34,539 nucleotides of DNA from UHGV virus genome UHGV-2132316. The stretch is one strand, 5' to 3'. The stretch is from a virus. The stretch's first letter is position 1. Every line of letters starts with the position of its first letter. Below are positions 26,812 through 31,612 of the stretch, in pieces. The notes beneath the pieces are model-generated. The model was not told where the DNA came from and searched no databases. It was given only the letters and a program-made list of their open reading frames with translations. A program made the translations under genes and the position numbers.

Positions 26812-29199
26812 TTAGTTCCGCGAAAATGCCGCTTTCATCCTATTCACAAGATCGCTTGTTTTTTGCTTCGCCGCCATCACTTGCGACGGCAGCCTCTCCA
26901 GCCCCGACGCGGCCCGGTTGCGCGATACCAGCCGCCCGTCCTGCACGGTCATAACAAGATCGCCGCACGCCACTGACGCACCGGCCATCATCGATCTGAC
27001 CATTCCGGCGCTGGCATCAATCCCACGTAGCGCCAGCAGTTCACTGATCTGCTGCTCTTTCACGGATAACCCGTCCCCGTCTTTCCGTTCCGGTGGCCGT
27101 TTTTTACGCTTACTGCGCACATCGTCACTAAGCCGCTGCGCCAGTTCTCGCTTTTCCTGCCGGGAAAGCGCATCAAAATTCACCGTCACGCCCTCAGCTG
27201 GTGCAGTCATTTCTGACTGCCCTTTAGCTTCGCTGGCGGCATGTTCAACACCGTCAGCACCTGCCGCGGGATCCCGCGTACAGTTATTGACAGAACTCCG
27301 AGGGGCGGCGCTGCCGCCTGAAAAACCAACGTCAACGGCCACACCGTCAGCGCTCTGGCGCTTCGGCACGATTTTGTATTGAGTGGTGCGGGTGAAGATC
27401 AAAGAGTCATTGCCCGTGATCGGGCAGTAAATACCAGTGATTCGCTGGACGTTATCGCCGTAGGCGTTGCCATTTTCAGTGATTTCATAGTTCAGACGGA
27501 TGCGCAGTTTATCGCGCTCAACCAACGGGCCACCCTGGGCTAATACGTAGTTATCCCATTCACCACCGTTAGCAGCCTGCCGGGCGGTTTCCAGTTCAGG
27601 GTGTAACACCAGTTCGCGATCGCCCAAGCGGCGAAGTTCGCGATATACCGTGACCGGCGCACCGCCGATCTGCTGAAACTGGCGAATAGCCCAGCGCGAT
27701 GCCCACGCGCTAACACGGAGTGACATTTCTTTCAGGTCTTCCCCGGTTTCGTCGTCCTTCTCACCATCCAGCGCGAAGCCGTCGATATTCTTCGAAATGT
27801 ATTTCGCTATGTAGCCGGTTGCGCTGCCGTGGGCATCGTCGATCGGCACAACCTGAAAGCGGTTTTCCTGCGCTCCCGGTTCGTTGCCGTCTTCTTTCAG
27901 GGCATATTTACGGAAGATTTCGCGCGCCTGCTCGACGCATTCCGGGCGCATAAAAAGAAGTAAATGCCAGTGTGGCGTTGCATCGTGGTGCGGTTCGACC
28001 ACGCGGAAACCAAAGACGCGGATCCCTTTTCTCTTCCACGCTGCGCGGGTTCTCGCCCAGACTTTGCAAAGATATTGCTGCGTCTCGCGCGGCGACGCGC
28101 CACAGTATTTATTATTGCGGCGCCCGTTATGCTGCATGGAGTGGTAACGGGAAGGTGCTGTCAGCGTGTAGAAGTCACCGGCCAGCCCTTCCAGCTTCGC
28201 CAGATCTTCAAATCCGCGCATTCTCGTCATGAGTTCGCGGCGACGGTTGGCCGGATTGGCAACACTACCGGCGACTTTATCGATCAGTGAAATGCGCTCG
28301 CCCGTGTCCTGGTCTTCCAGCTCCATAGCCTTAAGGTATTCACGGTTAGCCTTTTTCTGGGCCAGCCATTCCGTAAGGCACGGGGCGCTACTGTATGGGG
28401 AAGATTTTTTCTGGACGTATCCCGCCGCGATCATCAAGTGCTCACGCCATCGGGCATGGATACGGCGCAGGCGGTTTAACCACCATTGCGGTGACTCAAG
28501 ACGGAGAACCGCGCGTAACGCGTCCTCCGCTTCAAGTTCTTCATTGCAATACGCTGTCCAACCTGGGATCGGCGTTTTTAGATGCACCGCCAGCGACGCA
28601 ATACGGCCATAGCCAGAAAGCGCCGCGAACTCAGGATCGCCGGTGCGCGCCAACTGGTAATCGGACTCGCGTATAAACTCGCTCGTAAAGATATCGGCAA
28701 GCGTATAAGCCAGTCTTTTTAACTCTTTTTTCCCTGCCCAAAGCATACGGAAAAGCTGATCGCGGATTGGCAGCAGAATGCCAGGCATCACAGTGTCAGG
28801 CTGGTAAACACTGTTCACGCTATCAATACGTGTTAATACGTGGCGCTCAAAGGTATTAACCAGCCAGTGATCTGCCGCTTTGCGGTCTTTCGCGTCCAGT
28901 GCATCCAGCTTCGCGGCAAAGTGGCGGCGGATATACTGCGGAAGGGAAGCCAGACGGCGACGCAGCAGCTTGCTGCGCTCCGACTTTTCGTCCTCCGCTA
29001 CCAGTTCACTGAACGCAATATGCTTGCGGGTGCCGTCCGGCGTGAGATAGTCGAAACCATCCAGCCCCGTCGCTACATCAACGCCAATCGGCTGGTATGG
29101 TTTGTTCCCGCCATAAGCGTAAGGGGTAGCATTATCAGTGCTACCCGAATACGGTGGAGGTGGAGAAGGGGCGCGACGGCCACGGGTTGCCGTAGTCAT
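26812..29199 (-). CDS. A: Replication initiation endonuclease gpA-like (rolling-circle Rep)
   Basis: 795 aa; YTLTAPSRYH and GYIAKYISKNIDG motifs characteristic of P2 A-type initiators. Confidence 0.9.
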   Translation of the reverse strand: MTTATRGRRAPSPPPPYSGSTDNATPYAYGGNKPYQPIGVDVATGLDGFDYLTPDGTRKHIAFSELVAEDEKSERSKLLRRRLASLPQYIRRHFAAKLDALDAKDRKAADHWLVNTFERHVLTRIDSVNSVYQPDTVMPGILLPIRDQLFRMLWAGKKELKRLAYTLADIFTSEFIRESDYQLARTGDPEFAALSGYGRIASLAVHLKTPIPGWTAYCNEELEAEDALRAVLRLESPQWWLNRLRRIHARWREHLMIAAGYVQKKSSPYSSAPCLTEWLAQKKANREYLKAMELEDQDTGERISLIDKVAGSVANPANRRRELMTRMRGFEDLAKLEGLAGDFYTLTAPSRYHSMQHNGRRNNKYCGASPRETQQYLCKVWARTRAAWKRKGIRVFGFRVVEPHHDATPHWHLLLFMRPECVEQAREIFRKYALKEDGNEPGAQENRFQVVPIDDAHGSATGYIAKYISKNIDGFALDGEKDDETGEDLKEMSLRVSAWASRWAIRQFQQIGGAPVTVYRELRRLGDRELVLHPELETARQAANGGEWDNYVLAQGGPLVERDKLRIRLNYEITENGNAYGDNVQRITGIYCPITGNDSLIFTRTTQYKIVPKRQSADGVAVDVGFSGGSAAPRSSVNNCTRDPAAGADGVEHAASEAKGQSEMTAPAEGVTVNFDALSRQEKRELAQRLSDDVRSKRKKRPPERKDGDGLSVKEQQISELLALRGIDASAGMVRSMMAGASVACGDLVMTVQDGRLVSRNRAASGLERLPSQVMAAKQKTSDLVNRMKAAFSRN

Positions 29200-30110
29200 T
29201 GCGCGATCTCCATGTAGGCTTTTAAGAAAGTAGCGGCTGCATAGATATTTACGGCGTTTCCGCTGGCGCGTAGTTTTCCCACTCTGGAGGGAACCCCATC
29301 AACCAGAGGCTTAAGGCCGGGTTTAACTGGCCTCCACTTTCCATCTCTGCAAAAGAGCCAGTCAGCAGATCCCCAGAATCCGTTAACCGGGCCGGGCCTG
29401 CTATCTGCGCTGTCACATCCAGCGTATCCGTTGACAGCTTCCCGTGCCGCATCCTTCCCCCCTGATACCCGCCCTTTCCATCCCTCGCCGTAGGGGTGGG
29501 CCAGCCCGCAAGACAAGCAAAGTCCTGTAAGTTCGACTGCCGACCAGCCAGCTTCTTGGCGATCACCTTCTCGGCATCCTGATAAGCGTTCTTCGTATTG
29601 CTCGCGGTTGGAGTCGGCCAGCCAGTAAGTACGCTCCCGGATGTGCGGCGCACCGACGCCCGCAGACGGAAACGCCGACGCCCCGAAGGCATAGCCCAAA
29701 CTTTCCATGTCTGTTTGTACAAGGTCGATCCAGACTTCTGCATCTTTGCTTGAAGACTGTTCGCCAAATATAACGACAGGGCGTTGCTGGCCTGCAAGCC
29801 AATGAACGGCGGGCCATAGGTGCCGCTCATCATCAAATTGTTTTCCTTCGCCTGCCTGGCTGAAAGGTTGGCATGGGCAACTTGCTGTCCATACTGGGCG
29901 GTCATCCGGCCATCCTGCAACGCGCAAAGCCCGGGGCCAGCCTCCAAAACCTGCAAACAGGTGGACTTGAGAGAATCCTTTAATGTCATTTGGGGTTACA
30001 TCCTCAACGGAACGAGTATCAACAACGCCGGAAGCGATAAGCCCGGCATCAATGAGGTTGCGCAGGTATTGCGCGGCGAAGGGGTCGATTTCGTTGTAGT
30101 AGGCGGTCAC
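29196..30110 (-). CDS. DNA cytosine-5 methyltransferase-like protein (compact, atypical)
   Basis: LFAGFGGWPRAL (motif I-like), CPCQPFSQAG (motif IV), LGY...GVGAPHIRERTYW (motif VII/VIII), SGNAVNIYAAATFL (motif X). Confidence 0.7.
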   Translation of the reverse strand: MTAYYNEIDPFAAQYLRNLIDAGLIASGVVDTRSVEDVTPNDIKGFSQVHLFAGFGGWPRALRVAGWPDDRPVWTASCPCQPFSQAGEGKQFDDERHLWPAVHWLAGQQRPVVIFGEQSSSKDAEVWIDLVQTDMESLGYAFGASAFPSAGVGAPHIRERTYWLADSNREQYEERLSGCREGDRQEAGWSAVELTGLCLSCGLAHPYGEGWKGRVSGGKDAAREAVNGYAGCDSADSRPGPVNGFWGSADWLFCRDGKWRPVKPGLKPLVDGVPSRVGKLRASGNAVNIYAAATFLKAYMEIAQ

Positions 30111-30427
30111 TGCTGCCCCTCCGCCTTTCGGCTACACCGATCGATTACTTGGTACTGAATTTCTAAACCCAGCTTTTCAGCAAGCGCGTGCTCTGCCTTA
30201 GCTCCCGCAGACTGCTGCCAGCCATCCAGCAAGAAGATCCCGTCAGCACAACGCAACATGGCGAAGCAAATATCCATGTATTCCGCCTGCTCTAATCCGT
30301 CCGGCAAAATCGCCGGATTAAGGGCAACGTTTCCGCGTCGCACTACGTGCCCAGCTGCACGGTTAAAAGCCTGCCGATTGAATCCAGGCAAACCGCTCAT
30401 CGGGCCAGCGATATAGATTTTTGCCAT
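30107..30427 (-). CDS. Hypothetical protein, DUF4406 / nucleoside 2-deoxyribosyltransferase-like
   Basis: 106 aa; MAKIYIAGPMSG N-terminus and GW..S.GA..E..LA..LG.. pattern; start and stop overlap neighbours. Confidence 0.5.
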   Translation of the reverse strand: MAKIYIAGPMSGLPGFNRQAFNRAAGHVVRRGNVALNPAILPDGLEQAEYMDICFAMLRCADGIFLLDGWQQSAGAKAEHALAEKLGLEIQYQVIDRCSRKAEGQQ

Positions 30428-31398
30428 TAAAAAGCCTCCAGATCGCCAAACGTGCCCGCCGCAACCATCGCGTTGTAAGTCGCATCACCCATCACGGCGC
30501 CACAATCAGGGCAACCGCCGCCGTAACGCCCGCAGCAGTCGCAGACAGGCAGCACGCCGATCACTTCTTTGGCCTTCTGTCGGTTGTTTTTGTCAGTGCT
30601 GACGGAACGTTGCACGCTGATTTTGTGCATCTTGAAGGGCTGATAAATCGCGCGGGTGGCTTCGGTGTCGCTGTTGGAAATGACGACCTTCACGCCATGC
30701 TTACGGTTAACTTCCAGCAGTGCCTGGACTAACTGGCGGTGGTTGTCTTCCGTGAATGGTTCGGTGTGGTATTGGGTAAAATCGGCTGTTTTGCTTTCAG
30801 GCAGGTAAGGCGGATCGCAGTAAACGAGAACATCGCCACCCGTGACGACCTGTAGAGAACGCTGGAACGGCGCGCACAGAAATATTGCCTTTGTATCGTT
30901 GGCCTTTTCGGCAAACAGGCGGATTTCATTTTCAGGAAAGTAGACGCTCTTATACTTGCCAAACGGCACGTTAAAGCCAGTCTTCCGGCTGTATCGGCAT
31001 AAGCCGTTATAACCGTGGCGATTCAGATACAGGAATTGAGCAGCGCGCATAATGCACGCCATTTCAGCGCCATAACGCAACCCACCGCTTTTGACCGTAC
31101 CCACCTGCTTATTGAACGCGGCGCGGACTTCGTTGTATCCCTGCGGGCTGTTCTTACTGTTGAACAGTTCACGGGCCGCATCGATCACTAAGTCCGGGTA
31201 ACGGGTGACTTCCCGATACAGGTTAATAAGATCCGGGTTGATATCAGCCAGCACATAGCGGCGGTATTCAGTCGCCAGAAATACCGATGCGCCGCCTACG
31301 AACGGTTCGATCAGGCAGTCGGCTTTAGGAAGATGCGGCAGCAGGTCAGGGAGGACACGGGTTTTTCCCCCTGCCCATTTGATGAACGGGCGGATCAT
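30427..31398 (-). CDS. Dam-like N6-adenine DNA methyltransferase with a Cys-rich C-terminal extension
   Basis: PFIKWAGGK and DPPY motifs; high similarity to remembered E. coli Dam; C-terminal CDCCGRYGGGCPDCG; start at ATG 31398, track ORF is longer. Confidence 0.9.
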   Translation of the reverse strand: MIRPFIKWAGGKTRVLPDLLPHLPKADCLIEPFVGGASVFLATEYRRYVLADINPDLINLYREVTRYPDLVIDAARELFNSKNSPQGYNEVRAAFNKQVGTVKSGGLRYGAEMACIMRAAQFLYLNRHGYNGLCRYSRKTGFNVPFGKYKSVYFPENEIRLFAEKANDTKAIFLCAPFQRSLQVVTGGDVLVYCDPPYLPESKTADFTQYHTEPFTEDNHRQLVQALLEVNRKHGVKVVISNSDTEATRAIYQPFKMHKISVQRSVSTDKNNRQKAKEVIGVLPVCDCCGRYGGGCPDCGAVMGDATYNAMVAAGTFGDLEAF

Positions 31399-31399
31399 T

Positions 31400-31612
31400 T
31401 TACAGGACTCCGTAATGGGAAGCTGGAATAGAAGGGCGCTGCAATTCTTCAATGCAGTGCTGGCGCAGATTGCTTATAAAATTGGTTGCTACAGACCCAC
31501 TGGCAGAAAGGGTTAACTCACCATCACGGCGGGTTTTAATGGTTAACCCTTCATTTTCGATAGCAGGTAAAAGAACATGCAAAATGAAACTATATTGTTC
31601 ACGTCTGGTCAT
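31400..31612 (-). CDS. Hypothetical early protein (70 aa)
   Basis: ATG with GGAGG RBS; tightly packed in the early operon; no recognisable motif. Confidence 0.5.
   Translation of the reverse strand: MTRREQYSFILHVLLPAIENEGLTIKTRRDGELTLSASGSVATNFISNLRQHCIEELQRPSIPASHYGVL

Follow-up and report, generated by a model that had tools for sequence, protein, structure and literature searches.

The systems closest to the methyltransferase gene analysed here, which lies on the minus strand of UHGV virus genome UHGV-2132316 (34,539 nucleotides, the window), are DNA cytosine-5 (C5) methyltransferases made as two chains. One of these, M.EcoHK31I, has an alpha chain of 309 amino acids, and the two genes of another, M.AquI, overlap at their ends only. 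In M.EcoHK31I alpha carries motifs I to VIII and X and beta carries motif IX, both chains are needed, and translation of beta initiates at internal methionine codons in the beta frame (PMC2836561; PMC3404938). The published assignment places its target-recognition domain on alpha. M.AquI is a natural C5 methyltransferase of two polypeptides, split inside the variable region (PMC3404938). The window gene encodes a 304-residue protein, which we call alpha, and wholly inside it, in the +1 frame relative to alpha, a second open reading frame (ORF) of 246 codons, beta. The two overlap by 741 nucleotides here and by more than 1000 in relatives. We consider the locus to be, probably, a dual-coding gene for a nested two-polypeptide C5 methyltransferase of a P2-like prophage.

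Like M.EcoHK31I (an isoschizomer of M.EaeI), the window gene has its beta nested on the same strand in a different frame, and it appears to place motifs I to VIII and X on alpha and motif IX on beta, although the IX and X assignments here are statistically weak. The two also differ. The recognition-type repeats of the window gene are on beta, while the variable region of its alpha is unconstrained (ratio of nonsynonymous to synonymous change, dN/dS, 1.14) and predicted to be disordered (predicted local distance difference test score, pLDDT, 25-40). The window beta is longer, with an extra conserved N-terminal module over alpha motifs IV to VIII, and the N-terminal motif order of the window alpha is permuted. 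M.EcoHK31I belongs to a restriction-modification system, whereas the window gene is an orphan in a prophage operon. Protein searches with alpha and beta returned no match named M.EcoHK31I, and the likeness was judged by the published description. In M.AquI the small subunit carries both IX and X, whereas in the window gene X is on alpha and beta is fully nested.

A single-chain C5 methyltransferase, gp69 of Mycobacterium phage Wachhund (473 amino acids), has motifs I to VIII in one frame, followed by four (L)LPTP..D..GG modules, 'FPEWMMGWPAGW' (motif IX) and 'GNGVVPQQA' (motif X). The window gene resembles it in having, in the same order, a catalytic core, (L/W)PTP..D..GG modules, a motif IX of the form '..EW(M/L)MG.P.GW' and a motif X with 'GN.V'. 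Unlike the window gene, gp69 is encoded in one frame with no long alternative ORF, has the canonical I-II-III-IV order and has no equivalent of the beta N-terminal module. The Rz/Rz1 spanins of phage lambda are a further precedent, one gene being wholly embedded in the +1 frame of the other and the products forming one complex. Rz1, however, has only about 60 codons and an unrelated function, whereas in the family described here the overlap covers 246-360 codons and the split falls inside one ancestral enzyme fold. The lambda genes are mentioned in PMC9409062. A limited literature search found no description of this phage family as dual-coding, which does not prove that there is none; some genome annotators list both ORFs, and PHROGs labels both families as methyltransferase.

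We recovered 88 related loci, comprising 85 distinct sequences, with alpha identities of 44-100% and GC (guanine plus cytosine) contents of 0.53-0.66. All 88 kept the nested beta ORF on the same strand and in a different frame. Their +1 frame was stop-free over 235-362 codons, while the +2 frame held 7-26 stops. When the codons of alpha were shuffled, 15 of 20000 trials with the window gene gave a +1 run of at least 248 codons, and the observed run was matched in 7 of 20000 for a homologue of 47% GC and in 1 of 20000 for phage K1ind1.

Selection on the two frames was measured with an OLGenie-style estimator, which classes sites and differences as nonsynonymous or synonymous in each frame, over 30 phylogenetically independent pairs of 80-96% nucleotide identity. 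The beta frame was constrained through most of the overlap, with both frames selected on either side of a central stretch where beta alone was (Table 1). Treating the +2 frame as a control gene gave ratios of 0.81-1.74, never significantly below 1, and the alpha-synonymous rate fell from 0.81 upstream of beta to 0.17-0.27 within the overlap. A sliding window placed the beginning of beta-frame constraint at about alpha codons 50-85, and codon-position entropies from the 85 distinct sequences agreed with the dN/dS pattern. As purifying selection acts on alpha and beta and not on the +2 control, this comparison indicates that both frames are protein-coding. Translation of both frames was not among the options raised by the first-pass annotation, which had been made from the window's letters and a list of its ORFs. 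The middle of alpha supports the same picture from another direction. Amino-acid constraint is absent from its central 38-150 codons, but not one of the 85 sequences has a stop there, and when beta codons were shuffled in this region the median probability per locus that alpha stayed open was only 0.035. A middle that is unconstrained but never interrupted means that the reading of alpha has to continue as far as the C terminus.

The start of beta is conserved as well. In 79 of the 85 distinct sequences there is a beta-frame ATG at alpha codon 37 or 41, with GGAG, GAGGA or AAGGA 8-11 nucleotides upstream. These signals are formed from nearly invariant alpha codons (R-S-I-E-D-V / P-N-D). The codon for Asp37 is GAT in 74/85 sequences, and Arg33 is encoded by AGG in 38%, against 8% of arginine codons across the gene; the codon choice of alpha is visibly skewed to supply the start signals of beta. 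Together with selection on both frames, the conserved Shine-Dalgarno-like motif and ATG would lend indirect support to translation of both chains.

The layout is widespread. A protein collection clustered at 90% contains 5259 beta homologues, mostly unnamed or 'hypothetical', and a library clustered at 50% gave 10718 representative clusters at E <= 0.001. A phage collection held beta-like sequence in 224 records and a near full-length alpha in 233, including N15 gene 58 and the epsilon15 cytosine methylase. We found both frames in phages SI7 and SEN5, a 186-like prophage in which the gene caller picked beta over alpha, a Klebsiella prophage with a long insertion, a Xanthomonas siphovirus in which both ORFs are annotated as methyltransferases, Edwardsiella phage eiAU, an rV5-like phage of 47% GC, a Rhodobacter phage and a Ralstonia megaplasmid. 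Kagunavirus K1ind1 has them as ORF29, 'C-specific methylase', and the overlapping ORF28, 'Mte8-like'. Conservation spans P2-like, N15-like, epsilon15-like, Kagunavirus, rV5-like, Rhodobacter, Xanthomonas and Burkholderia phages. A search of plasmids for a family member linked to a restriction enzyme found only phage-plasmids and prophage-like contexts.

Some of these loci have peculiarities of their own. In eiAU (L007, 481..1899, minus strand) the beta frame runs on in frame, without a stop, into the gene for an N6-adenine methyltransferase downstream, giving a joint ORF of 472 amino acids that could be a real fusion or a mere missing stop. One antisense frame is stop-free over nearly the whole gene in four high-GC homologues (358/358, 340/340, 281 and 278 codons in L068, L070, L050 and L020), which may be a by-product of stop avoidance in two sense frames. 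On the Ralstonia solanacearum megaplasmid (L092, 1546..2487) alpha/beta directly follows, and slightly overlaps, a gene of the PAPS-reductase family; the pair may form a DNA-modification module.

Alpha on its own is recognisable as a C5 methyltransferase. The first-pass annotation had quoted motif strings from the 304-residue frame and from a second open frame, and every one is present: in alpha YYNEIDPFAAQYLRNL (residues 4-19), DVTPNDI (37-43), LFAGFGG (51-57), PCQPFS (79-84), GVGAPHIRERTYW (151-163) and SGNAVNIYAAATFL (283-296), and in beta GWPTPTASNTKN (123-134), GWPTPTARDGKGG (162-174) and LWLMGFPPEW (228-237). Pfam PF00145 covers alpha residues 74-172 only (E 7.7e-11; model positions 65-167 of 324), while residues 1-303 match positions 9-316 of the phrog_363 profile end to end (E 1.8e-78). 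Thousands of proteins annotated as DNA cytosine methyltransferase (296-400 amino acids) align to 98-100% of alpha with no frame switch. In a profile alignment to M.HhaI, alpha residues 71-168 fall on HhaI 72-173 and place three motifs, all invariant in homologues: IV (Cys80 in PCQPFS, against HhaI PCQAFS), VI (E117 in FGEQ, against FMENV) and VIII (R158 and R160, against QKRER). The region of HhaI motif I aligns weakly with alpha 37-67 (7.3 bits).

Structure prediction agreed with these alignments. The AlphaFold2 model of alpha is mostly confident over residues 1-170 (pLDDT mostly 82-96, but falling to 49-73 near residues 81-100, 121-130 and 141-160). Residues 172-253 are disordered (pLDDT 25-40), and a C-terminal helix follows at 274-303, with pLDDT 64-90 over residues 281-304. 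Foldseek matched the model to the catalytic domains of M.HhaI, DNMT2, DNMT1 and M.HaeIII with probability 1.0 over about 170-190 columns. The predicted fold of alpha is that of a C5 methyltransferase.

The N terminus of alpha departs from the canonical order of motifs I, II and III. A II-like YYNEIDP (residues 4-10) and a III-like EDV (36-38) come before the I-like LFAGFGG, which is followed by IV, and this II-III-I-IV order is family-wide. The first-pass description of a compact enzyme with an atypical motif layout was apt. Support from gp69 for motifs II-III was weak (hhalign of alpha 2-43 on gp69 25-65, P 0.054). AlphaFold2 predicts with high confidence a strand-helix-strand-helix-strand-helix-strand series at the N terminus, in which the strand and helix of LFAGFGG directly precede motif IV. 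The region encoding alpha 4-57 (29940..30101, minus strand) resembles a local permutation of the Rossmann strand order, an order that PF00145 does not model. The C-terminal half differs too from the full-length C5 methyltransferase pattern, which has target-recognition domain, IX and X in one polypeptide. The C terminus of alpha gave hhalign P 0.014 against the motif X region of gp69, so that motif X is matched at pattern level only. Alpha's own reading of the nucleotides encoding beta motif IX, DGKWRPVKPGLKPLVDGVP, also resembles motif IX.

Beta matches two PHROGs labelled DNA methyltransferase, phrog_31772 (E 9.5e-39) and phrog_1008 (E 2.8e-27). Scans of beta with Pfam and NCBIfam gave nothing meaningful; 150 representatives of the beta family hit no Pfam family and none carried PF00145 in frame, and PDB sequence searches with profiles of the whole or the C-terminal part of beta found no match even at E 10. 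The peptides TSGSVLTGWPTPTASNTK and LSTDTLDVTAQIAGPAR are specific to beta. Homologues carry 2-5 WPTP modules, the number differing between loci. AlphaFold2 of beta alone gave a mean pLDDT of 64, the confident parts being a helix at 65-86 and a hairpin at 91-113 (pLDDT 82-90), and Foldseek found no fold match for the model.

A profile of 150 beta sequences aligned over residues 124-174 with gp69 254-364, which are the (L)LPTP repeats between motifs VIII and IX (hhalign probability 90%, E 1.8e-6), and the C terminus of beta aligned with gp69 motif IX 'LAAAFPEWMMGWPAGW' (P 4.7e-4). The alpha core aligned with gp69 68-165 (probability 98%), with 34% identity over alpha 76-173. The spacing of QLNPALSLWLMGFPPEW in beta equals that of KLHPRECARVMGYPDSY in M.HhaI. 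As beta matches the repeats and motif IX of gp69, and alpha the core and motif X, beta corresponds to the variable region plus motif IX of a normal enzyme and alpha to the rest, with the assignments of IX and X statistically weak. The suggestion of the first-pass annotation that the second frame holds real methyltransferase motifs is borne out by these alignments.

From this we propose that ribosomes starting at the GTG at 30110 would produce alpha, with an S-adenosylmethionine-binding catalytic Rossmann domain (Cys80 of PCQ, E117, R158/R160), a disordered linker of unconstrained sequence and a C-terminal block whose motif X helix would return to that domain. Independent initiation at the internal ATG of position 29989, behind GAGGA in alpha codons 36-37, would yield the 246-residue beta in the +1 frame, with its family-specific N-terminal module, WPTP modules in the target-recognition position and motif IX. 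The two chains would assemble into active enzyme, by analogy with M.EcoHK31I, for which assembly has experimental proof, and this would methylate phage and host DNA as the orphan methyltransferase of an early operon, Dam - DUF4406 - alpha/beta - gpA. Dual coding and the nature of the two domains are results of the analysis; we infer that beta is translated, that a heterodimer forms, that the repeats act in specificity, and what the enzyme is for, including any part in anti-restriction.

Several points weigh against the two-chain enzyme. The likeness to M.EcoHK31I is one of published architecture, and in that enzyme the recognition domain is assigned to alpha, not beta. The string DGKWRPVKPGLKPLVDGVP makes the assignment of motif IX to beta non-exclusive, so that alpha alone might work. 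Neither Pfam PF00145 nor the PDB profiles detected motif IX or X in either frame, and the PF00145 match became no longer with an artificial chimera that joined alpha(1-163) to beta(124-237) and alpha(274-304), or with the C-terminal fragments by themselves; the IX and X assignments thus rest on hhalign to one single-chain enzyme and on pattern. Finally, beta alone gives a poor AlphaFold2 model without a fold match, which fits a subunit that needs a partner, yet is no evidence for one.

The most serious alternative, which we nevertheless think unlikely, is that translation of both frames gives two independent proteins: alpha would be a mini-methyltransferase sufficient by itself, with its own IX-like and X motifs, and beta, instead of being an obligatory subunit, would have another role, such as a specificity modulator, regulator or anti-restriction factor. 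The IX-like string of alpha has the canonical R-to-G spacing and is followed by motif X, purifying selection acts on the alpha frame over this block, and the N-terminal module of beta has no known homologue. Alpha, however, has no structured region between VIII and IX/X (dN/dS of about 1, pLDDT 25-40), and therefore offers no recognisable means of reading a DNA sequence. The repeats of beta fill the place of the gp69 variable region, in the same order relative to motif IX, and M.EcoHK31I requires both chains.

A single polypeptide made by two programmed frameshifts, +1 after motif VIII and -1 back into the frame of motif X, would recreate a canonical enzyme, and the order alpha (I-VIII), beta (repeats, IX), alpha (X) does mimic gp69. 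It is very improbable all the same. The beta frame is open and selected upstream of VIII (dN/dS 0.39 over alpha codons 73-168), and beta is equipped with a conserved Shine-Dalgarno-like motif and ATG of its own. The alpha frame has no stop in mid-gene, where it would be unread, and selection on that frame is seen over alpha block 241-276. Nucleotides 29279-29293 encode both beta IX and the alpha residues before X, which leaves no room for a shift site. A programmed frameshift gene was rejected because both frames are constrained or kept open on each side of any possible shift site. Nor, from the sequence, is the layout a simple double frameshift of a gp69-like ancestor, since beta motif IX (29279-29329) and the conserved alpha block just before motif X share nucleotides, and beta 1-120 is printed over alpha IV-VIII.

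Still less credible is the idea that the second frame encodes nothing and stays open through GC-rich sequence and the amino-acid constraints on alpha, its motifs being chance matches, as the first-pass annotation had considered. The GC content is 56%, and several homologues have long spurious ORFs on the opposite strand. The +1 frame is nevertheless open in 88/88 loci, including the phage of 47% GC; purifying selection is specific to beta and absent from the +2 control, with beta the sole constrained frame in mid-gene; and the start signals of beta are conserved. We regard the chance reading as refuted by universal openness, frame-specific selection and homology to the gp69 repeats. The other first-pass suggestion, a frameshifted pseudogene or sequencing errors, has nothing in its favour beyond the split of motifs over two frames and deserves practically no weight, as homologues are colinear with 98-100% of the 304-residue frame, the very outcome that the first-pass annotation had named as its refutation, the identical sequence is present in a finished Escherichia coli genome and an IMG/VR contig, and the layout is kept family-wide under purifying selection.

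Table 1. Features of the alpha/beta gene and selection on its two frames (positions in the window, or alpha codons where stated; dN/dS ranges in parentheses)
Feature	Position	Strand	Description and evidence
alpha ORF	29196..30110	(-)	304 aa, GTG start; Pfam, PHROG, HhaI profile alignment, Foldseek
beta ORF	29249..29989	(-)	246 aa, ATG start, +1 frame; PHROG matches, purifying selection in own frame
alpha Shine-Dalgarno-like GGAGGGG	30116..30122	(-)	5 nt upstream of alpha GTG; read from sequence
beta Shine-Dalgarno-like GAGGA	30001..30005	(-)	alpha codons E36-D37; 11 nt upstream of beta ATG (29987-29989)
GTGA overlap, alpha GTG / DUF4406 stop	30107-30110	(-)	read from sequence
ATGA overlap, alpha stop / gpA start	29196-29199	(-)	read from sequence
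alpha catalytic domain, residues 1-168	29607..30110	(-)	Rossmann-type; AlphaFold2, Foldseek, HhaI alignment, dN/dS 0.07-0.21
alpha linker, residues 169-240	29391..29606	(-)	no amino-acid constraint, variable length, never a stop; dN/dS 1.14, pLDDT 25-40
alpha C-terminal block, residues 241-304	29199..29390	(-)	W..ADWL.C.DGKWRPV.PG..PL..G, then putative motif X helix SGNAVNIYAAATFLKAY; dN/dS 0.34 and 0.32
beta N-terminal module, residues 37-120	29630..29881	(-)	LSARQAK.., GSTLYK.TWK.., RLRASVRRTS; over alpha motifs IV-VIII; beta dN/dS 0.39
beta repeats, residues 123-174	29468..29623	(-)	two GWPTPTA..(D)GKGG modules; putative target-recognition region; beta dN/dS 0.51
beta motif IX-like, residues 221-237	29279..29329	(-)	QLNPALSLWLMGFPPEW; hhalign to gp69, beta dN/dS 0.32
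Selection, upstream of beta	alpha codons 1-38		alpha dN/dS 0.07; beta frame 1.18
Selection	alpha codons 41-72		alpha dN/dS 0.11; beta 0.79, not significant
Selection, both frames selected	alpha codons 73-168		alpha dN/dS 0.21; beta 0.39 (0.30-0.51)
Selection, only beta selected	alpha codons 169-240		alpha dN/dS 1.14 (1.00-1.30); beta 0.51 (0.42-0.60)
Selection, both frames selected	alpha codons 241-285		alpha dN/dS 0.34; beta 0.32 (0.19-0.52)
Selection, downstream of beta stop	alpha codons 289-304		alpha dN/dS 0.32; beta frame 0.82

The gene sits in an almost complete P2-like prophage, in the order D12-class Dam methylase (30427..31452), DUF4406 gene (30107..30427), alpha/beta and gpA replication endonuclease (26812..29199). 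The GTGA and ATGA overlaps that join DUF4406, alpha and gpA suggest that translation is coupled from gene to gene in the early operon. At the DNA level the gene is matched with 100% identity in the chromosome of E. coli strain 81009; of the two ORFs, RefSeq annotates alpha alone there (WP_072129282.1, 'DNA cytosine methyltransferase'). The Dam-like ORF, on the same strand, has 341 amino acids, a TTG start and a Cys-rich tail, CDCCGRYGGGCPDCG. In strain 81009 the Prokaryotic Genome Annotation Pipeline (PGAP) marks the Dam gene at the corresponding position as partial/pseudo; identity to the window was established for the alpha gene.

Annotation of the family is uneven. In both E. coli records examined, RefSeq PGAP leaves beta out, and an exact-sequence look-up of submitted alpha and beta proteins found neither. 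In public assemblies it is often beta, and not alpha, that gene callers report (L003/L004, 3001..3828; P0001-P0120). The window beta has an entry of 100% identity (P0001), while among the matches listed full-length alpha entries reach at most 82%.

The locus is of interest mainly for how long, old and widespread the overlap is, and because current annotation largely misses beta. On balance we lean a little towards a joint reading in which alpha and beta represent a family of long genes nested on the same strand in phages of Proteobacteria, a family that is very large (more than 10000 clusters at 50% identity) and has gone essentially unannotated, Pfam having no model for beta. The recognition (small) domain of the C5 methyltransferase would be a separate +1-frame protein, encoded over 230-360 codons, part of beta would be overprinted on the ancient catalytic core, and the linker of alpha would be frame-open but sequence-free, solely to reach motif X. 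Few long same-strand overlaps in which both frames are proven to be under selection are known from bacteria and their viruses. The enzyme fold here would be split by reading frame and not by gene fission, and many phage methylomes may be credited to an incomplete enzyme. If this reading is true, specificity would evolve by gain and loss of WPTP modules in beta while alpha must stay open, and the published assignment of the recognition domain to alpha in M.EcoHK31I-type enzymes may need revision. Naturally heterodimeric methyltransferases already serve as platforms for targeted methylation (PMC2836561), and if beta carries specificity, swapping or editing it could be a way to predict or re-engineer the methylation specificity of phages.

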